Under the pieces are notes generated by a model, which worked only from the letters and a program-made list of their open reading frames with translations, was not told the origin of the DNA and ran no database searches. The position numbers and the translations under genes were made by a program. A stretch of DNA of 11,102 nucleotides from Promethearchaeota archaeon (GTDB taxonomy: Archaea; Asgardarchaeota; Lokiarchaeia; Sigyniarchaeales; SOKP01): NCBI GenBank assembly GCA_011364975.1, contig RDOE01000094.1, positions 1 to 11,102 of the forward strand. The letters run 5' to 3'. Shown here piece after piece: positions 556 through 10,560 of the stretch. How positions within the stretch are numbered: the stretch's first letter is position 1; each line of letters starts with the position of its first letter.

Positions 556-1491
556 TTATTCAGACTTATCATTTTTATATTTATCAATTTTTGGAATGTA
601 GATTTTTACTTTAGGAACATAGATTTTAGGTGTTTGAACTTTTGAAACCATCTTTATAGTTTTTTCGATCATTTCAGAATTTTTCTCCAAAATGGTTTGC
701 AATGCAACGTATTGATTTGTATCAACTTTTATATTTTCTTGGGATGTAATCTTTACAGTATCGGGAGAGCTCTTTAATTCGCTAGAATCCTCGGCTTTCC
801 AAGCCTTTGCAGCTGGCTTATTCTCTTGAATGCCAATTATTTCACTTTCAATTGATGTTATATAATCAATCAGTTTAAATTTTTTATTTTCGATTATCTT
901 CTTATAATCACGCATAAAGTTTTCATAAATAGAATATCGACTGAATTCAGAGTCTTGTAAGACCCATCCTGTAGAAGGATCATAAAGCATTCCTATAATC
1001 TTGACGTTTGCCGGAAAGAATTTTGTTTCTTGAAATTTTTCTACTTGATACATGATGTTTTTAATCTCATCGACAAACGTTTTAAAAAACTTCTGAAATT
1101 CAAGAAAAACATTTGTGCCTTGACTCATAATCATTTTCAAAGTAGTAATATTCAATTTATCCTTTAGCTTCATTAGGTTAACTTTTTTCATTCCACAATC
1201 TAAATGTCCTAAGATAATAATGAATCTCACATTATATTCATAAACTGCTATTAATGCTGATCTTAGAGTGTCTTTAGTATAGATATTTCCGGCATTTCTT
1301 AATACAAGCACATCTCCTGGACTTAATTGAAAAATCCGATGAATGTCAATTCTGGAATCCATACATGTTAGAAATAAAACTGGATACTTTGGGCCTTTTC
1401 CTTTAGTTTCAATAGATTCTAAATCTTGTTTTATTTTCCATTGGTATTGATTGTTTCCCTCTATTAATTTTTCCATTATATTATCGATCAT
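556..1491 (-). CDS. Beta-class carbonic anhydrase (cab-type-like) with a ~130-aa C-terminal extension
   Basis: C43-x-D45-S-R47 (TCMDSRID), RNAGN, H96-x-x-C99 (GHLDCG) and terminal G-x-x-YD-x-x-TG motif. GAGGT ribosome-binding site at 1503-1499. Confidence 0.92.
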   Translation of the reverse strand: MIDNIMEKLIEGNNQYQWKIKQDLESIETKGKGPKYPVLFLTCMDSRIDIHRIFQLSPGDVLVLRNAGNIYTKDTLRSALIAVYEYNVRFIIILGHLDCGMKKVNLMKLKDKLNITTLKMIMSQGTNVFLEFQKFFKTFVDEIKNIMYQVEKFQETKFFPANVKIIGMLYDPSTGWVLQDSEFSRYSIYENFMRDYKKIIENKKFKLIDYITSIESEIIGIQENKPAAKAWKAEDSSELKSSPDTVKITSQENIKVDTNQYVALQTILEKNSEMIEKTIKMVSKVQTPKIYVPKVKIYIPKIDKYKNDKSE

Positions 1492-1574
1492 GTTTTAAAC
1501 CTCTACGGACATAACATAAAAAATTTATATTAATTATTAAACTCCAAAAAAAAATTTTAAATTATTAATAAAAG

Positions 1575-2753
1575 TTATTTTTTGGCAAATGTAGAAATTA
1601 TTTCCCGCACCTTTGATTTATCGCCATCTCCAAGAAAATTTTTGATTTTATCAGAATATTCAGGAAGTAATTGTAAAAACGGAAGTATAGCTTTCGATAA
1701 CGCACCGAAAGCCTCATCACCATTTCCCATAATGAACATTTTGTCTGGACTTAAGTTCTTGAATATTTCAGGTAATATATTTGTTAACTGTACTGCTAAA
1801 AACCTTTGGTCTGCAGAACTCATAGCCTCAACTTGTTTCTGGAAACCTTCAGCTTGTGCTAACATTTGTTGCTTAATGCTTTCAGCTTCACCTTCAGCTT
1901 GTGCAATCAATCTCTTCTTGATTTGAGCAGCATCAGCATCAGCTTCAATTACCTTCTTTATTCTATCACCATCCGCCTCAATTTGCTTCCTTTCTCTTTC
2001 TTGTTCGGCAATAGCTATCTCTTTCTCTTTTCTACGTAATTCAATTTCTCGTTGGACGACTTGTTCTTGTATTCCAACTTCATTTTGAACTTCTAGTTCT
2101 CTTAATTGTGATTCTCTTTCTGCGTCTGCTTTTGCTAATCTTGCTTTTCTAAATTCAATCGCTTGCTTTACAGCTTCCATGTTTTTCTTGAGCTCTTGTT
2201 CTACGATAATTACTTCCAAGATTTCTATTGACTCAATTATAACACCCCAATCGGCAGAAAGTTCGTGCAAATCTTTCTCAACGTGATCTATAATTTCTCT
2301 TCTCTCTCTAATTATTTTTTCTAACGGCATATTCGCACAAGTTGTACGCATAATTGCTTCAGCAGCTCCTTTTAAAATCTTTTCAACATAGTTCTCATCT
2401 CTTGGATTCCAAGATACTGAACTAAATGCTTTTTCAGGGTCTATTACCTTCCAAATTAGAAGACCGACAATTTCTAAATTTTGATATTCATTCGAAACTA
2501 CTTGATCATGCGCTTCTATTTTAGTCTGTATACTTGTTGTTGGGATAACAATATATTCATCAATTAATGGTAATAACCAGATTCTCCCACCTAAACCAGC
2601 AGATTTCACTTTACCATTCCTCAAATGAATGACGAATTGGTTAGTTTTGAACTTTCTATACCGTGCGGCTAAGAAGATTATGAAAAGAAACGCGATTATA
2701 ACAATAGTAACTGTTACGCCGACTCCAACTGGATTAATCTCTTGAAATAACAT
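1575..2753 (-). CDS. Flotillin-like SPFH/band-7 membrane protein
   Basis: N-terminal TM helix followed by RYRKFK; SPFH core (AEAIMRTTCANMPLEKIIRER...WGVIIESIEILEV); long coiled coil with Ala/Glu repeats (EADADAA, QAEGEAE, QAEG). AGGAGG ribosome-binding site at 2769-2764. Confidence 0.92.
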   Translation of the reverse strand: MLFQEINPVGVGVTVTIVIIAFLFIIFLAARYRKFKTNQFVIHLRNGKVKSAGLGGRIWLLPLIDEYIVIPTTSIQTKIEAHDQVVSNEYQNLEIVGLLIWKVIDPEKAFSSVSWNPRDENYVEKILKGAAEAIMRTTCANMPLEKIIRERREIIDHVEKDLHELSADWGVIIESIEILEVIIVEQELKKNMEAVKQAIEFRKARLAKADAERESQLRELEVQNEVGIQEQVVQREIELRRKEKEIAIAEQERERKQIEADGDRIKKVIEADADAAQIKKRLIAQAEGEAESIKQQMLAQAEGFQKQVEAMSSADQRFLAVQLTNILPEIFKNLSPDKMFIMGNGDEAFGALSKAILPFLQLLPEYSDKIKNFLGDGDKSKVREIISTFAKK

Positions 2754-2799
2754 TTTTTTCTTTCCTCCTTTATTATTTTTAATTTTTTTCTATTTTTTT

Positions 2800-3669
2800 T
2801 TAATTTTTATTTAGATTTTTAAATTTTTTTCTTAAATTGTTGGTATTTCTCTCTACTAATAGATGTTTATTACTTACACCAACAATATATACTTTTTCCT
2901 CCCTCTCGAAAACCTCTTCCGGTTGGAAGGGCATTACATGTAATTTTTCATATTTCATAGGGTTATCTGATGCAACTTTAATAACCCCACCACGACTATC
3001 CACTTTTAATATTACTTCACCCTGTTTTCCAAGTAGATTTTGCGTGGAAGCAATTGGATAATGCGTTGATATTGCTATTTTTTTCCAAACTTTTGATATT
3101 AATTTAGTTGTTAAAATACCAGCAACGGGAGATAATATAAACATTAAAAATTTCAATTGTATTATATAATATGACGCTATTCCTGAAATCCCAAAAACTA
3201 GCAAACCAGATGATAACAATAGCATAAATGGAGCTGGTGTACTACTCTCTTGATATCGTGAATCTACTTGAAATTCTTTTGCAAGATCATGATCCACTTG
3301 CTCTAAATTATCTATATTATCATAATGGTCTAGATGATCAAGATGATCAACGTGATCAATGTGGTCCAGATGGTCTATATGGTCAACGTGATCAATGTGG
3401 TCCAGATGGTCTATATGGTCAATGTGATCAATGTGGTCCAGATGATCTATGTGGTCAATGTGATCAATGTGGTCCAGATGATCTATGTGGTCAACGTGAT
3501 CAATGTGGTCCAGATGGTCTATATGGTCAAGATGATCCACATGGTCAATATGGTCTGTACTTTGATCATGAACGGACATTTCAGCTAAAACAAATGAGAT
3601 TACGGACAATATTAAGCCTCCAATAAACAAGCCCAAACAAATGCTAAAAAAGATGTCATAAATATCCAT
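2800..3669 (-). CDS. NfeD/YqiJ/YuaF-like membrane protein with a His-Asp repeat tract
   Basis: TM1, (DH-hydrophobic)x26, two further TM segments, and a C-terminal NfeD-type OB-fold pattern (NLLGKQGEVILKVDSRGGVIKV...EKVYIVGVSNKHLLV). Lies directly upstream of an SPFH gene, the usual NfeD context. GAGGTGA site at 3686-3680. Confidence 0.85.
   Translation of the reverse strand: MDIYDIFFSICLGLFIGGLILSVISFVLAEMSVHDQSTDHIDHVDHLDHIDHLDHIDHVDHIDHLDHIDHIDHIDHLDHIDHIDHIDHLDHIDHVDHIDHLDHIDHVDHLDHLDHYDNIDNLEQVDHDLAKEFQVDSRYQESSTPAPFMLLLSSGLLVFGISGIASYYIIQLKFLMFILSPVAGILTTKLISKVWKKIAISTHYPIASTQNLLGKQGEVILKVDSRGGVIKVASDNPMKYEKLHVMPFQPEEVFEREEKVYIVGVSNKHLLVERNTNNLRKKFKNLNKN
3322..3555 (-). repeat. Coding 9-nt tandem repeat: 26 x Asp-His-(Ile/Leu/Val/Tyr)
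   Basis: Residues 39-116 of the 2800-3669 protein; 234 nt counted directly. Confidence 0.95.
3348..3527. repeat. Higher-order 36-bp tandem repeat x5 (types A-A-B-B-A on the + strand)
   Basis: A=CAACGTGATCAATGTGGTCCAGATGGTCTATATGGT at 3348, 3384 and 3492; B=CAATGTGATCAATGTGGTCCAGATGATCTATGTGGT at 3420 and 3456. No spacers. Confidence 0.93.
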
Positions 3670-3799
3670 GGTTATATTTTCACCTCAACCTAACTTTCTC
3701 AATTACATTATTTAAATGTTCTTTAGCTTTGGATAATTCAGATCGATTTAAATCTAAATCCTTTTTGTGATTTTGAAACATAATTTTTTTATCCACCCC

Positions 3800-3994
3800 T
3801 TATATAATAATACTAGTAAGTATCCAGACACTAAAGATTAACAATATAATAATCATAATATTAAACAACACTACACGAGTTAAAGAGCGTTTACGATGCA
3901 GCTTTTTTTGGTACTTTATTGAACGGATATCTTTCCCGTGAAAACATAATGGTTTAAAATACTTACTTTCCGTTCTACTTTCACTTTTACTCAT
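3800..3994 (-). CDS. Small basic protein with a C-terminal transmembrane helix (tail-anchored-like)
   Basis: 64 aa; starts 6 nt after the stop of 4001-4843; Lys/Arg-rich segment followed by hydrophobic VVLFNIMIIILLIFSVWILTSIII at the extreme C-terminus. Confidence 0.6.
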   Translation of the reverse strand: MSKSESRTESKYFKPLCFHGKDIRSIKYQKKLHRKRSLTRVVLFNIMIIILLIFSVWILTSIII

Positions 3995-4000
3995 TTTTAT

Positions 4001-4843
4001 TTATTCCCTCTTTTTATTGAATAACCTTTTATTATTATCAACCAAAACTTTATTTTCTCTAATCGCAACCACAAAAACCTTCGCTCCTCTATCAAATACA
4101 GATTCATCATCATATGGTTTAACATGCAATTTTTCAAATTTCATTGGAGTAGTAGATTCAATCCTTATTACACCTCCTCTCTTATCCACAGGTAAAATAA
4201 CTTCACCCTCAACTCCAAGCAGATTTTGGGTTGATGAAATTTTATAATATTCTGATTTTGCAATCTTTTTCCATGCTACATTTAGATATTTTGCTACAAA
4301 AAAGCCAATTAATGGTGAACCAATAAACATCAAAAATTTTAATCCTTCAATTGATATTAAATAGTAAAGGGATATCCCTGAAATGCCAAATACAAGCAAA
4401 AACGCTGATATCAGTAACATAATTGGAGCGGGGGTAGTTGAACTTCCGATTGCTTCCATATCTGTATCCACTTCCAAATCTGTGTCTACATCTATATCTG
4501 TATCTACATCAGCATCCACATCTACCTCCGCGTCCAAATCTACATCGACATCAGCTTCAACCGAGTCGAATTCCGCCCCCATGTCGTAGTCAACATCTAC
4601 ATCGACATCCGCATCAATGTCTACATCAACATCTGCATCTATATCTATATCAGCATCTACATCTATCTCAGCATCCAGATCTACATCCACATCGACATCC
4701 GCATCAATATCAACCTCAGTATCAACTTCTTGTCCTAAAGATTGGGATTCCATCTGTGCTAAAAAGACTGAAATTATTGAAAAAATGATCCCACCAATAA
4801 ACAACCCTAAACAAATACTAAAAAAAATATCATATACATCCAT
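4001..4843 (-). CDS. NfeD/YqiJ/YuaF-like membrane protein with an alternating acidic tract; paralog of 2800-3669
   Basis: Same architecture as 2800-3669; 24 of the first 31 residues identical; shared TPAP-x-MLL, LLVFGISGI, WKKIA, STQNLLG and EKLHV motifs. Confidence 0.85.
   Translation of the reverse strand: MDVYDIFFSICLGLFIGGIIFSIISVFLAQMESQSLGQEVDTEVDIDADVDVDVDLDAEIDVDADIDIDADVDVDIDADVDVDVDYDMGAEFDSVEADVDVDLDAEVDVDADVDTDIDVDTDLEVDTDMEAIGSSTTPAPIMLLISAFLLVFGISGISLYYLISIEGLKFLMFIGSPLIGFFVAKYLNVAWKKIAKSEYYKISSTQNLLGVEGEVILPVDKRGGVIRIESTTPMKFEKLHVKPYDDESVFDRGAKVFVVAIRENKVLVDNNKRLFNKKRE
4454..4729 (-). repeat. Degenerate dipeptide repeat (D/E-x)n, x mostly Val/Ile/Ala/Thr/Leu
   Basis: Residues 39-130: 45 acidic residues in 92, with no Lys, Arg or His. 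Confidence 0.93.
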
Positions 4844-4991: not shown

Positions 4992-5546
4992 TTAAACCAA
5001 TTTTGTACCACAGTGAAAGCAATACATCGAGTCCTTATCCGTTCTTGTTCCACAATAAGGACAAAAACTCTTATCTATTACTTTTTCTTCTCTCGTTTTC
5101 TCTTCAATAATTTCAATTTGCCGAGAATAATTTATTTCAGGTTTATTTAATCGAGTTCCACAGTTTTGACAGAATGATGCCCCTTGAGTTATAGAAGCAC
5201 CACACTCTCTACAATAGCCTGATTGTGGCTTTATATTCGAACTCGCATTATTACTCTTAATTAAAGTGGGTTGAGATATACTGACTGTGGAAGTCTTTAC
5301 CATATAAGGATTTGTATGGTTATAATTTTGTTGGTAGTAATAATTCTCTGGTTTTCTTCTATTTTGTCTCGATCCTTGCGATGCAGCAACTGTAATTCCA
5401 ATAAATATAACAAAAATAATAATTACCGGAAATATCGGAAAAATGAAAAATATACGATTGAATCCAAAAAAGAAAAAAACCCCGAATAAGATCATCATTA
5501 TAAGGCCAATAAAACAGCCTATTCCTGAATTTCTACGTTGATACAT
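4992..5546 (-). CDS. Membrane-anchored protein with two zinc-ribbon domains
   Basis: Two N-terminal hydrophobic segments, an N/Q/Y/S-rich linker, CREC-x10-CQNC and CPYC-x10-CFHC. Confidence 0.85.
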   Translation of the reverse strand: MYQRRNSGIGCFIGLIMMILFGVFFFFGFNRIFFIFPIFPVIIIFVIFIGITVAASQGSRQNRRKPENYYYQQNYNHTNPYMVKTSTVSISQPTLIKSNNASSNIKPQSGYCRECGASITQGASFCQNCGTRLNKPEINYSRQIEIIEEKTREEKVIDKSFCPYCGTRTDKDSMYCFHCGTKLV

Positions 5547-5908: not shown

Positions 5909-6661
5909 GTGATTCTTATAGCAAAGAATATGGGAAATACGAATGAAACTACGAAATCTGACGAACCAGAGGCTGAAGCTAAAGAAAATCCTGTTTATGT
6001 TAAAGTAGATGAAACAACGAGGCATAAGATTGATAAATATAAAGAATTAGGTATCACGATGTCTAAACTTATTCAAGATGCTGTGACATTATATGATGAT
6101 TTTTCTTCTTTGAAACCTGAAATTAAGGGAGTAATAGAGAAATATAAACAAGAAGAGGAATCTGTTATTGATTTTTTAGAGAAAGCAGTAAAATTTTATG
6201 GTGATCAGCGGGATTTAGATCGAGATTTATTCCTTCGAATGAGAGAAGAAATGAAAATGATGTTAATTGGTAAAACTACATTTAATCAATTAATAGCTGC
6301 TGCAAAAGAACCAAAAGATGCAAGAGAATTACCAATTAAACGAAATGTAGCTTTTGATTTAATAATGTGGTATAATAAGTCAAGACCTCTAAAGCATCTT
6401 ACGATTGAGGAAATAATTGAGACTGTAAAGAAGATTTGGGTAGTTGCAAATTATTTTTACGTAATTGACGTTAGCCAGGAAAGTGAGGATGAATTTCATT
6501 TACTTTTCCGTCATCGACAAGACAAGAATTATTCAGAGTATTGGTTAAATTACTTTACTGAATTATTTAATTCAAAAGAACTCGGATTTAAATGTATGAT
6601 TGAAGGTCAAGCGTTTGATGAAAGTATTAGTATGACAATAAAAATTGGTTATGAAGAATAG
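5909..6661 (+). CDS. Putative transcriptional regulator: N-terminal ribbon-helix-helix plus C-terminal alpha/beta (possibly V4R/H-NOX-like) domain
   Basis: VYVKVDETTRHKIDKYKELGITMSKLIQDAVTLY fits the RHH strand-helix-turn-helix pattern. The start is uncertain (GTG 5909 or ATG 5930). Confidence 0.6.
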   Translation: MILIAKNMGNTNETTKSDEPEAEAKENPVYVKVDETTRHKIDKYKELGITMSKLIQDAVTLYDDFSSLKPEIKGVIEKYKQEEESVIDFLEKAVKFYGDQRDLDRDLFLRMREEMKMMLIGKTTFNQLIAAAKEPKDARELPIKRNVAFDLIMWYNKSRPLKHLTIEEIIETVKKIWVVANYFYVIDVSQESEDEFHLLFRHRQDKNYSEYWLNYFTELFNSKELGFKCMIEGQAFDESISMTIKIGYEE

Positions 6662-7412: not shown

Positions 7413-8396
7413 TTAAGGAAGAAAATCATCAAACGCCCAGTAATGTTCTTCTTCTTGCTGAATAATGTCTTCAAACATCTTTTTGGTTTTAATATCTCCC
7501 AGTTTCGTAGCTTCATCAATAACTTTTCGATAGAGGACAATGGCATAATTTTCAGCTTCCCTATCAAGTTTAATAAAATCATCTTCATTATTTCCAATTT
7601 CTGGAACGGGATTTATATCAGCGACAGCTTCACGATCAATTTCATAAATTCTCTCTGAAATCATTTCCATGTGTTCCATTTCTTGAAGAAATGTTTTCTT
7701 TAATATACCAGAAATTACACCCGCTTTGTTTTTTCCAGTAGCAACTTCTAGTGGCGCTTTTTTCTTACGTAACCTTTCTAAACCATCAGCTTTTTCATGC
7801 TGAGTAGTATATTGAACAATCGCAGAGATTTCGCTTGCTAAGGCTTTATTCAATAAAGCTATATATTCTTTATTATTAAAAATTGACCTCCATTCAGATT
7901 CAGGGGTCTCTGCCAGATCAGGTTCACTTTCCATTTCATTATAATCTTGAAATTTAAGTAAATGTTCTTCTTCATCACTGTAAATTTTCATAAATAATTG
8001 CCATGTTTCCCGATCTCCAATAGCTTTAGCAGCTTCAATTATTTCGCGGTACATTGCTAATGCTTCTTCTTCCGCTTTTAAATCAAGCTTGGCAAATTCC
8101 TTCATTGTATTTCCAATTGTAATTTTTGATGGTTTCGTTGTAGCTTCTCCACCTAAGATATAAATTCGTTCCATTATTGCACCTAAATGTTTCATTTCTT
8201 GAATGGCTAATTCTTTGAGAAGTTTTCCAAATTCTTCATAAGTAGTAGTCTCTAAAAGATAATTCTCTTTAATTACTTTACGTAATAATTTCTCCATTTT
8301 AGTATGTTGAAGCATATATTGAGCAGAAACTTGTATTTCTCTTGCTACAGCTTTATTTAAAAGGGCAATATATTCATCTGTTACTTTAATAACCAT
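7413..8396 (-). CDS. Tandem double ferritin-like (bacterioferritin-like) di-iron protein
   Basis: Two homologous four-helix bundles, each starting EYIALLNKA. Ferroxidase-type ligands E20/E67-M-K-H70/E109/E142-E-E-H145 and E189/E239-M-E-H242/E282/E315-E-E-H318. Confidence 0.9.
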   Translation of the reverse strand: MVIKVTDEYIALLNKAVAREIQVSAQYMLQHTKMEKLLRKVIKENYLLETTTYEEFGKLLKELAIQEMKHLGAIMERIYILGGEATTKPSKITIGNTMKEFAKLDLKAEEEALAMYREIIEAAKAIGDRETWQLFMKIYSDEEEHLLKFQDYNEMESEPDLAETPESEWRSIFNNKEYIALLNKALASEISAIVQYTTQHEKADGLERLRKKKAPLEVATGKNKAGVISGILKKTFLQEMEHMEMISERIYEIDREAVADINPVPEIGNNEDDFIKLDREAENYAIVLYRKVIDEATKLGDIKTKKMFEDIIQQEEEHYWAFDDFLP

Positions 8397-8512
8397 ATTA
8401 GATTCCTTTTTTTAGATTTTTCATTAAATATTATTGAGATTGTATTAAAAAGTTTATTCTTAAAAATTATAGATATATAAAGTTTTTAATGATAATATCC
8501 ATAATTTAGCTT

Positions 8513-9592
8513 ATGAAATTCTTTTCATTAGATCAACTAAAATCTTACGATAATGAAATCGGACCTCTTGTTGAATTATCCTTTAATAATGAAAGTTCGG
8601 CCTTAATCTCAGAATATGGAGGCCGGTTATTAGGGTTATTTCCTCAAGAAAATATAATAAGCTTGCTTTGGGTTAATCCAAGAATAAAAGAAGTTGTTAA
8701 ATCACGAGAAAGAGCTATTGGGGGTGATAGATATTGGATCAGTCCTGAACGAGAGTTTTTTTATGAAAAACCTGAAACCTGGGAAGGTTGGTTTTGTCCT
8801 CCAGGCTTAGATCCCGCTATGTATGATATTTTAGATAGTAATTCTACATCATGTACACTCTCGAGTCCCCTTACAGTAAAATCTCAGGTTACCAAGCAAA
8901 TATTTAGCGGAGAAATCACAAGACAGATCTCATTAATAAAAGAGCCAATAAAAACAGGTATTTCATATTGTGGGGTTGAATTTCTTGATGATTGCGTTCT
9001 ATACGCACCAAATCTTAAAATTAACGGGTGGTCTTTGGCATGCATCATCAGCGGAGGGGCTTCAAATCCCGGAACGGTCCTAATTCCGACTAAATCAAAT
9101 CCTAAACCGCTTTCTTATTTCAGAACTATACCAAGTAATAGGATAAAGGTTCAAGAAAATTATATTGCCTTCAAAATTGATGTTGAAGATATTTATAAAT
9201 TAGCAGTTCGACCTAACGATATTGATTTTTCTAGAAAAGCTAAAATTGGATACATCTTAAGAGTTCCTGATTCAGATTACTTTGGCTTATTAGTTAAATT
9301 ATCAGATGACATTCCAAGATCTCAAGCAGATTGTTTCGATATTGCTCGAGATAACCCAGATGGCGAGATTGGTGTAATTCAATCATATAACTCAGAATCT
9401 CCAGAAAAACCTAGTGTTCTAAAATATGGAGAGATTGAACTACAACTAAGTAAATTTGAAAATATTGATAATAGTTCCCATGGAAAAGCTAAACACCAAA
9501 TTATTAATTATTTTGGAACAAAGAATGAAATATTAGACGTAATAGAAAAATATTTTGGGATTATTCAACCGATCCTTTTTGAAAAAGCTTAA
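8513..9592 (+). CDS. Hypothetical protein, probable galactose-mutarotase-like beta-sandwich fold (DUF4380/DUF6786-like)
   Basis: ISEYGGRLLGL...LLWVNP and GGDRYWISPE motifs are typical of aldose-epimerase-like superfamily N-termini; YGEIELQ near the C-terminus. Confidence 0.55.
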   Translation: MKFFSLDQLKSYDNEIGPLVELSFNNESSALISEYGGRLLGLFPQENIISLLWVNPRIKEVVKSRERAIGGDRYWISPEREFFYEKPETWEGWFCPPGLDPAMYDILDSNSTSCTLSSPLTVKSQVTKQIFSGEITRQISLIKEPIKTGISYCGVEFLDDCVLYAPNLKINGWSLACIISGGASNPGTVLIPTKSNPKPLSYFRTIPSNRIKVQENYIAFKIDVEDIYKLAVRPNDIDFSRKAKIGYILRVPDSDYFGLLVKLSDDIPRSQADCFDIARDNPDGEIGVIQSYNSESPEKPSVLKYGEIELQLSKFENIDNSSHGKAKHQIINYFGTKNEILDVIEKYFGIIQPILFEKA

Positions 9593-9651: not shown

Positions 9652-10560
9652 ATGACTCAAAAAAGAAAAGTAAAATATCAACAACTAATAATCATCTTTA
9701 TTATATATATTGCCTTATGGTTAGTTCTGGTACCTATGATAAAATCACCCCAATTTCCTTTAAATGTGGATGTTTCTTTAAGTGAGTTTGTTCCTGCTCA
9801 AGATATATTGACAGAGCTAGCTACAATTTTTATCATTATTCTTCCACTGACTAGTATATTAAGTCTTCTTATAGGGGGCTACATACTAACACCAATAGTA
9901 ATAATATTGCATAAACTATTCTTTAGATCCAAGAATTTTTATGGTATTCAATATGAAAGCCATCTAGAAGAAAGACGTTTTTTATCCCTTGGTTTCTATC
10001 CAGTTTTAATGTCCATCAATCTGGCTTCAATTTTTAATAGACCAGAAATATGGGGCTTCCTTTTAGAGTCTAATTTAATTGCAGATATTAATAATGTTTG
10101 GAGAATCCCAGCATTGACTCGGTTTTTTGCTTTGACTATCTTATTAATGTTTACATATGGCATTTCAATTTTTCTTTTTTCACCAGTCTGGTATTTAAGG
10201 GATTCAGGTATAATTTACACAAATAAACGAAAAATAGAACAATCTCAGGAATCATTTAATTTAAAGTCTTTAGGAGATTGGTTCCAAACCTTATTGAAAA
10301 GTTATGCCGGAATTGGAGCAATCTTAACCTATATCTTTATCGTTTATCTTATCACAACAAGCTTTATAAACGAATGGGATATTGCAGTTTTAATCTTATG
10401 GTTTGGACTCCCTTTTTACTTAGTGCTTTCAATGATTCCAGCTCTGATTTTTAATGATTTGATTAGAGGACATAGGATTAATTTCACTAGAAAATTAGCT
10501 TATAAAATGGGGATAAAGGAAAAAGCGATTACATCCTTTGAATTTAAAGCGATTGAGTAA
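9652..10560 (+). CDS. Polytopic membrane protein of unknown function (about 6 TM segments)
   Basis: 302-aa ORF with multiple long hydrophobic stretches and a WYLRDSGIIY loop; 59 nt downstream of 8513-9592. Confidence 0.75.
   Translation: MTQKRKVKYQQLIIIFIIYIALWLVLVPMIKSPQFPLNVDVSLSEFVPAQDILTELATIFIIILPLTSILSLLIGGYILTPIVIILHKLFFRSKNFYGIQYESHLEERRFLSLGFYPVLMSINLASIFNRPEIWGFLLESNLIADINNVWRIPALTRFFALTILLMFTYGISIFLFSPVWYLRDSGIIYTNKRKIEQSQESFNLKSLGDWFQTLLKSYAGIGAILTYIFIVYLITTSFINEWDIAVLILWFGLPFYLVLSMIPALIFNDLIRGHRINFTRKLAYKMGIKEKAITSFEFKAIE

Follow-up and report, generated by a model that had tools for sequence, protein, structure and literature searches.

The DNA analyzed here (the window) is an entire contig of 11,102 bp (RDOE01000094.1) from a 3.74-Mb genome bin of an Asgard archaeon. 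Its minus strand carries a co-oriented run of genes for NfeD-like membrane proteins, a flotillin-like SPFH protein, and a beta-class carbonic anhydrase (CA), and the order of NfeD, flotillin, and CA genes recurs in dozens of species. The original prediction for this DNA described five co-oriented genes, and the listing of open reading frames (ORFs) agrees. The five minus-strand ORFs lie at 4843..4001 (280 residues), 3994..3800 (64 residues), 3669..2800 (289 residues), 2753..1575 (392 residues), and 1491..556 (311 residues), and the gaps between them are exactly 6, 130, 46, and 83 nucleotides (nt). The unit begins one gene further upstream than was predicted, at a gene for a transmembrane (TM) protein with zinc ribbons (5546..4992). 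From its first gene to its last, the unit contains the following features.

4992..5546, minus strand: TM and double zinc-ribbon protein, 184 residues, first gene of the co-oriented unit (Pfam Zn_Ribbon_1, 3.3e-14; DZR, 8e-11).
4001..4843, minus strand: NfeD-like protein of D-type, 280 residues, with TM1, an acidic loop, TM2-TM3, and an OB domain (about 4004-4234); paralogue of the H-type protein, within a starred clade of 13 D-type proteins.
4436..4753, minus strand: (Asp-hydrophobic)n tract, residues 31-136 of the D-type NfeD; Asp autocorrelation peaks at lags 2, 4, and 6.
3800..3994, minus strand: small tail-anchored membrane protein, 64 residues, with a basic N-terminus and a C-terminal TM segment; tblastn matches at syntenic positions in 7 loci.
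2800..3669, minus strand: NfeD-like protein of H-type, 289 residues, with TM1, an Asp/His loop, TM2-TM3, and an OB domain (about 2803-3048), as predicted from an AlphaFold model and Foldseek.
3241..3579, minus strand: (Asp-His-hydrophobic)n tract, residues 31-143 of the H-type NfeD, recognized by composition and DNA repeat.
1575..2753, minus strand: flotillin-like SPFH protein, 392 residues, with an N-terminal TM segment, an SPFH domain, and a long helical region rich in E, A, and K (Band_7, 6.6e-27).
1546..1554, minus strand: run of nine T, candidate archaeal terminator or attenuator ahead of the CA gene, 20 nt past the flotillin stop codon.
556..1491, minus strand: long-form beta-CA, 311 residues, with a catalytic domain (about residues 38-176), a variable linker, and a conserved tail (Pro_CA, 2.7e-21).
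586..633, minus strand: conserved C-terminal Lys/Pro/Ile motif TPKIYVPKVKIYIPKI, residues 287-302 of the CA (consensus PKIQxPKIxIPKVKIxIPKI).

The predicted identities of these genes also proved right, for the CA and the SPFH protein by Pfam and for NfeD by a fold match, not by Pfam.

Does this gene order recur? Eighty species loci were drawn by an NfeD-family profile from GTDB representative genomes and searched by tblastn with the window proteins. A flotillin gene was found in 78 of the 80, downstream of NfeD in 75 and upstream in 3; the other 2 gave no flotillin match. The NfeD-flotillin order was followed by a CA gene no more than 350 nt past the flotillin gene in 54 loci and by one 0.9-1.6 kb past it in 5. 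The CA was absent from 8 loci of this order with at least 1200 nt available and from 2 with 400-1200 nt available, and 6 loci had less than 400 nt of sequence remaining after the flotillin gene. In other words, a CA gene lies past the flotillin gene in 59 of the 69 informative loci (at least 400 nt of sequence available). The 3 loci of reverse order (flotillin then NfeD; L024, L028, and L030, about 8001-8960 in each) carry no CA, and their NfeD ends in a C-terminal CxxC..CxxC zinc ribbon. Because the zinc ribbon is fused to NfeD there, the separate TM/zinc-ribbon gene of the window appears to be tied to NfeD. Four of the loci (L030, L083, L046, and L048) lie in bins titled bacteria or Bathyarchaeota, probably owing to binning contamination.

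Further evidence comes from the CA side. Of the 30 best long-form CA loci, 27 have a flotillin gene as their immediate upstream neighbour on the same strand; one of the remaining 3 has no upstream room, and in one of the last two (G210), a second copy of the CA gene takes the upstream place. Linkage of the CA to the flotillin locus in relatives, which had been proposed as a check on the original prediction, is thus seen from both sides. Because the order recurs in dozens of species, the NfeD-flotillin-CA arrangement appears to be far beyond chance. Nor does the synteny look like mere drift, because the flanks are not conserved: the CA is the last gene of the conserved co-oriented run, the commonest gene after it (convergent, for a 150-residue protein) is present in 25 of 50 loci, and the other common genes at this position are further small proteins. 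The flotillin-CA junction is kept among CA orthologues that diverge down to 34% identity.

To gauge how widely the arrangement is spread, 301 genomes of the phylum were sampled. Strong CA matches (frames of 217-329 residues, E no higher than 2e-69) numbered 44, and all of them fell in 43 genomes of the window's own GTDB family, which are 42 of the 68 genomes sampled in that family together with the window's genome. Matches in other families ended by profile position 193 of 296, except for one that was broken by 8 stops. In this sample, by these matches, the long-form tailed CA is found only in the window's GTDB family. Repeat-bearing NfeD relatives are spread more widely and were found in other families (f7, 24/28; f24, 15/21; f29, 7/11; f18, 4/5; f2, 5/7). 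An exception to the pattern of the CA was found in the distant family f8, where a CA of 176 residues is followed after a 13-nt gap by an NfeD with an H/D tract and then by a flotillin gene, in a tight operon confirmed by Pfam. Linkage had been envisaged across Asgard genomes; it stands within one GTDB family plus this one distant case and is not phylum-wide. A cluster spanning Odin-, Thor-, Hermod-, and Hodarchaeota was ruled out, because the three so titled loci that could be placed (L035, L063, and L029) sit in one genus of the window's family. GenBank titles and GTDB differ for these loci: L029, L035, and L063 are titled Thor-, Odin-, and Hermodarchaeota, respectively, and are placed by GTDB in the window's family.

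The CA matches Pro_CA (PF00484) at 76.9 bits against a cut-off of 25.7 and is the sole Pro_CA match, and the only beta-class CA, in its genome. For an alignment, 30 of the 59 orthologues were used (26 without an ATG start and 3 cut by contig ends were dropped). The active-site residues C43, D45, R47, H96, and C99, which supply the Cys-His-Cys ligands and the Asp-Arg dyad, are at least 90% conserved across 31 sequences. The closest solved relatives by sequence are 3las, 1ddz, 1g5c, and the carbon disulfide (CS2) hydrolase 3ten (E 8e-19), and the carbonyl sulfide (COS) hydrolase 3vqj is also close. The substrate could be CO2, COS, or CS2. In the tail, the same 31 sequences share P288 and P300 without exception, and K289 and I290 reach at least 90% conservation. 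The last 42 residues have a net charge of +6, and the linker between the catalytic domain and the tail motif is poorly conserved. All six homologues of CA residues 185-311 are Pro_CA proteins, and a genome-wide search found no other protein with a PKI tail. Tandem pairs of long-form CA genes were seen after the flotillin gene in L023 (11334-12248 and 13348-14238) and also in G210:C9 (541301-542200 and 543312-544205).

The SPFH domain of the flotillin-like protein is recognized by Band_7 (PF01145) at 95.1 bits against a cut-off of 23.6, and a profile of the protein matches stomatin, QmcA, and prohibitin chains. The match to a flotillin-type C-terminal domain is weak (PF15975, Flot, 18.4 bits against a cut-off of 27; NCBIfam FloT, 24.9 bits against 700), and the best solved sequence relatives are stomatins, not flotillins. 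The protein is 65-87% identical to 52 orthologues. Membrane baskets have been described by cryo-electron tomography in another Asgard archaeon, according to a preprint (bioRxiv 10.1101/2025.11.06.686947), and by analogy with other SPFH proteins the window's protein may form an oligomeric membrane basket. A second, more divergent SPFH gene is present in the genome (G000:C149:59041-59529; L004 1351-2451; Band_7, 41.4 bits). It is flanked by two ORFs without a Pfam match, and no NfeD-like match lies beside it.

The two NfeD-like proteins are distinguished by their tracts. The D-type tract consists of 106 residues, of which 37 are D and 9 are E, with no H, K, or R; its Asp period is 2, and its DNA has periods of 6, 12, and 18. 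The H-type tract consists of 113 residues, including 32 D and 28 H, with an Asp period of 3, and its DNA contains a tandem repeat at 3326-3556 (period 36, 6.4 copies, 90% matches). The net charges of the tracts are -46 and -33. The two proteins are 50% identical across 176 C-terminal residues, an identity by which they are paralogues. The AlphaFold model of the H-type protein has helices at residues 3-37, 146-169, and 173-202 and a five-strand C-terminal barrel with strands within residues 216-273 (predicted local distance difference test, pLDDT, about 80-89). Residues 34-144 have a pLDDT below 50 and are thus modeled as a disordered loop. The first five Foldseek ranks for the model are all NfeD proteins (8z5g YbbJ, 3cp0, 3wwv, 2k14, and 2k5h), and the match to 3cp0 has a target TM-score of 0.84 and a root-mean-square deviation of 1.7. 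On this model, the C-terminal domain is an OB-fold barrel of the NfeD type. The N-terminal TM helices, three in the model, and the adjacency to an SPFH gene are those of short-form NfeD. Runs of about 34-36 unknown residues, which are N in the DNA, interrupt the NfeD tract in loci L005, L018, L025, L034, L035, L037, L043, L051, L065, and L072, and many contigs stop at the tract. NfeD counts in draft genomes are underestimated, because the tract repeats break or gap assemblies.

A tree was built from the TM2-to-OB regions of 58 of 82 NfeD proteins, 33 of D-type and 25 of H-type; rows with runs of unknown residues, truncated rows, and short-tract rows were left out. The tract label needs 1-3 changes on this tree against a mean of 19 after shuffling, and by this measure the tract type is stable. 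Relatives carry one tract type, either (D-hydrophobic)n or (D-H-hydrophobic)n, and both are intact in the window's genome only. Neither the 80 other species loci nor the 300 other sampled genomes yielded a further case of two intact NfeD copies, so the predicted pair of NfeD paralogues is not a design that recurs. The placement of the two copies in different well-supported clades ruled out a recent tandem duplication. Because of this placement, the pair would represent either old paralogues or a recombinant set. In L013, an intact H-type NfeD is immediately preceded by a 71-codon fragment (7735-7950, plus strand) that has a D-type tract and a Y..GAEFD landmark and ends in TTPAT. Judged by eye, this fragment is probably a decayed second NfeD copy; BLASTP of the fragment against the D-type protein was not significant (E 46), the fragment being a low-complexity piece that BLASTP cannot score.

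The 64-residue protein encoded between the two NfeD genes has counterparts elsewhere. Of the 35 loci in which NfeD and the flotillin gene are separated by a spacer of at least 200 nt, 24 have a small TM ORF of a similar kind there, and an FHG.D[VI]..KKFQKK motif is common to the window's protein and the relatives' small ORFs. These matches indicate that the ORF is a real conserved gene. Its origin as a split-off fourth helix of the His-rich NfeD was ruled out, as it is out of frame with that gene and its homologues are separate ORFs in relatives. The strict motif located the small gene in 10 D-type loci, always downstream of NfeD; in the H-type loci found in this way, it is upstream in 2 and downstream in 1. 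In L005, outside the motif screen, it was placed upstream of NfeD by eye. An ancestral order of D-type NfeD, small gene, and H-type NfeD, as in the window, mostly fits these positions, on thin evidence.

Shine-Dalgarno-like sequences precede the small gene, the H-type NfeD gene, the flotillin gene (GGAGG, 8-12 nt ahead of the ATG), and the CA gene. A 33-codon ORF (MFQNHKKDLDL...) lies at 3681-3782 on the minus strand, within the 130-nt gap ahead of the His-rich NfeD. No transporter, Ca-handling gene, or mineral-related gene was found among the conserved genes of the unit, as judged from the genes around the CA in relatives' loci. Upstream of the unit, one neighbour is conserved.

5909..6661, plus strand: divergently transcribed conserved neighbour, 250 residues, possible regulator; on the opposite strand upstream in 53 of the 80 loci (40-64% identity).

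In 49 of these 53 loci, NfeD is immediately preceded, on its own strand, by an ORF for a TM protein with CxxC..CxxC. The predicted model of the 250-residue protein is helical in its N-terminal part and alpha/beta in its C-terminal half, and the latter has a weak likeness to Bet3/TRAPP, BcsD, and H-NOX folds (best E 7e-4, TM-scores 0.30-0.46). The protein could be a ligand-binding regulator of the cluster. Further along the window, a 327-residue protein with two tandem ferritin-like/rubrerythrin-like domains (Ferritin, 5.6e-37, in two stretches) is encoded at 7413-8396 on the minus strand and is near the cluster in 8 of the 80 loci. A DUF6786 protein (6.6e-15), encoded at 8513-9592 on the plus strand, is conserved in 15 of the 80 loci. 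It is followed at 9652-10560 on the same strand by a gene for a 302-residue multi-pass membrane protein with no family match.

On which side of the membrane do these proteins lie? The third TM helix of NfeD is followed by KK, the flotillin TM segment is followed by RYRKFK, and hydrophobic segments are absent from the CA. In about 27 of 62 relatives, a fourth N-terminal helix is added, preceded by a strongly basic segment, and the tract is placed inside because the extra helix follows this segment. From these features, we infer that the tracts, the SPFH domain, and the CA are all cytoplasmic, which is the placement originally predicted.

How would these components work together? The reading that we favour, tentatively and with a little less than even confidence, is a family-specific elaboration of the NfeD-SPFH operon, in which a cytoplasm-facing basket has a dedicated long-form CA as its client and a polyanionic loop serves for buffering or docking. 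The operon would encode, in order, the TM/zinc-ribbon protein, NfeD (here two, with the small tail-anchored protein between them), the flotillin-like SPFH protein, and the long-form CA. Like other SPFH proteins, the flotillin-like protein would assemble into a basket at the cytoplasmic membrane face, and NfeD would bind it via the OB domain. The Asp-rich loop of NfeD (60-140 residues, with or without His) would hang into the cytoplasm at or under the basket. The conserved basic Pro/Lys/Ile tail would then keep the CA at this patch, with the polyanionic loop, the scaffold, or the membrane itself as its point of attachment. Because the CA tail is basic and the NfeD loop is polyanionic, electrostatic docking or a proton/cation buffer beside the enzyme is suggested. 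Such a patch would couple the interconversion of CO2, HCO3-, and H+ to a dense array of titratable carboxylates and imidazoles that may act as a proton and cation buffer or may be merely a docking surface. Candidate physiological outputs are pH handling, bicarbonate supply, and ion storage. As most species keep a single tract type, the two look interchangeable in function. A complex prediction for flotillin, NfeD residues 135-289, and the CA scored 0.00 without controls and says nothing either way.

Several observations weigh against this reading, and some of them speak for an alternative in which the CA is an unrelated neighbour, that is, a separately transcribed housekeeping enzyme kept adjacent by vertical inheritance in one family without being coupled to its neighbours physically or functionally. 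All 18 parsed flotillin-CA spacers (of the 54 adjacent loci) have a run of 6-11 T past the flotillin stop codon; the NfeD-flotillin spacers have T-runs of 5 or fewer in 31 of 36. In archaea, an oligo-T run is usually a termination signal. Past the T-run comes AT-rich sequence in which a promoter could lie. Because of the T-run in 18 of 18 spacers, the CA may be attenuated or separately transcribed, possibly from its own promoter. A search for RNA sequencing runs covering 556-4843 listed none. A sigma-70 promoter scan gave 23 sites against 31.1 in shuffles, and no hairpin terminators were found, with bacterial models that are uninformative for an archaeon. The strong CA linkage is also essentially confined to one GTDB family, and no CA was found within about 6 kb of the NfeD-flotillin pair in 1-2 loci each from families f2, f4, f7, f18, f24, and f29. 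Even in the window's relatives, the CA has been lost from 10 of the 69 informative loci. Finally, the enzyme is the genome's only beta-class CA, as a housekeeping enzyme would be.

Two further points weigh against the favoured reading. The tail is not required for co-location, because the CA of family f8 has none. In addition, neither repeat protein reaches the Pfam gathering score for NfeD (12.9-16.4 bits against 29.1), and a second NfeD-related model is likewise below its gathering score (12.6 against 25.4 bits; PF01957 and PF07290 were tried). Only 3 of 17 NfeD-family members yield even a weak Pfam NfeD match, the sequences being too diverged for NfeD or YqiJ_OB, and the NfeD-family profile found no PDB chain by sequence at an E of 1 or better.

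Against an unrelated neighbour, however, stand the limitation of the tailed CA form to the flotillin locus (27 of 30 loci) and the persistence of the flotillin-CA junction, down to 34% CA identity, where the flanks past the CA vary. The tight operon of the distant family f8, with its CA upstream of NfeD, also argues against it. Considering both sides, an uncoupled housekeeping CA seems rather unlikely, and a dedicated CA client of an NfeD-SPFH basket is still the reading that we favour.

Improbable, too, is a reading in which the tracts are high-capacity, low-affinity cation binders, of Ca2+/Mg2+ for the D-type and also of transition metals for the H-type, and in which the basket is an ion store or sensor that the CA modulates via local pH. 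The high net negative charges and regular Asp spacing of the tracts are consistent with it, as are their different lengths between species and the disorder of the modeled loop, which recalls acidic ion-buffer proteins such as calsequestrin and histidine-rich Ca-binding protein. However, the unit contains no transporter or channel gene, and the cytoplasm is an unusual site for bulk Ca storage. Similarly doubtful is an extended form of the favoured reading, in which a protein-bounded CO2/HCO3-/H+ (or ion-storage) microcompartment would capture the CA via a charge-complementary, repeated PKI tail and would descend from an ancestral set of D-type NfeD, small protein, and H-type NfeD, with one NfeD lost in relatives. 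If true, an SPFH cage would for the first time have a defined enzyme as its cargo.

The original prediction also raised mineral nucleation and Zn supply, and both are now very unlikely. A site of carbonate mineral nucleation at one patch has as its sole point the co-occurrence of an Asp-rich polymer and a CA, which is the carbonate mineralization toolkit; nothing beyond composition supports it. Against it, the tract, SPFH domain, and CA appear to lie in the cytoplasm, not in a lumen or extracellularly, neither an enclosed space nor a Ca supply (no Ca transporter or compartment gene) was found at the unit, half of the relatives use a His-rich tract instead, and the gene combination was unreported in the literature searched, in which mineral inclusions were not among the topics asked. 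Delivery of Zn (or Ni), in which the His-rich tract stores metal for the Zn-dependent CA or hands metal to it, would suit the 28 His in 113 tract residues beside a Cys-His-Cys Zn enzyme, but it fails because the CA is equally linked to His-free tracts (e.g., L039, L040, L042, and L055), and 33 of the 58 NfeD proteins in the tree have essentially His-free tracts.

If the CA is a client of the basket, the arrangement matters because the scaffold may have a recognizable enzyme client. The function of SPFH/flotillin cages has long been open, and bacterial knock-outs have mostly weak phenotypes, as stated in PMC13086221. An operon that combines one specific, assayable enzyme bearing a locus-specific tail with a simple periodic loop as its partner opens concrete experiments. 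Moreover, the archaea that carry the cluster belong to the phylum closest to eukaryotes, in which baskets attached to the membrane were observed only recently.

Several known systems resemble parts of the arrangement. In the flotillin-associated rhodopsin cluster of SAR11, HIMB59, and Pseudothioglobus, as described in PMC10308929, a flotillin gene steadily adjoins one specific client gene, a lineage-specific paralogue that occurs almost only there. The client in that cluster is a rhodopsin of the membrane, and metatranscriptome reads demonstrated co-transcription, whereas here the client would be a soluble beta-CA with a special tail. CA transport metabolons, like the rhodopsin cluster, are among the nearest concepts and offer an analogy only. 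According to the reports, CAII binds an acidic LDADD cluster of AE1 and EEE of MCT1 (PMC3794380), and stomatin associates with AE1, which places an SPFH protein in the neighbourhood of a CA metabolon (PMC5383999). Such metabolons are built on an alpha-class CA, an actual transporter, and a short motif; here, the acidic partner would be a 100-residue polymer, and the conserved genes of the unit include no transporter. The CA itself shares its catalytic domain and Zn ligands with Cab-type beta-CAs and with CS2/COS hydrolases (1g5c, 3las, 3ten, and 3vqj), and it differs from them in about 130 extra C-terminal residues that end in the PKI-rich motif.

In literature on NfeD/flotillin/CA, Asgard SPFH proteins, acidic or His-rich NfeD repeats, and Asgard CAs, the combination was not described, and one paper treats NfeD, flotillin, and CA separately. 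The arrangement is best seen as a variation on the known NfeD-SPFH operon: the NfeD-flotillin pairing is already known, and no published description was found for what appears to be the addition of a dedicated CA. The solved QmcA-YbbJ complex is an SPFH-NfeD cage that faces the cytoplasm (PDB 8z5g; PMC13086221). As in the short-form NfeD and SPFH pairs of Bacillus subtilis (YuaF-FloT) and E. coli (YbbJ-QmcA and YqiJ-YqiK), an anchored NfeD with a C-terminal OB barrel is encoded directly upstream of an SPFH gene. Unlike in those pairs, a periodic Asp or Asp/His loop of 60-140 residues lies between TM1 and TM2, and a TM/zinc-ribbon gene, a gene for a small tail-anchored protein, and a CA gene belong to the unit as well.

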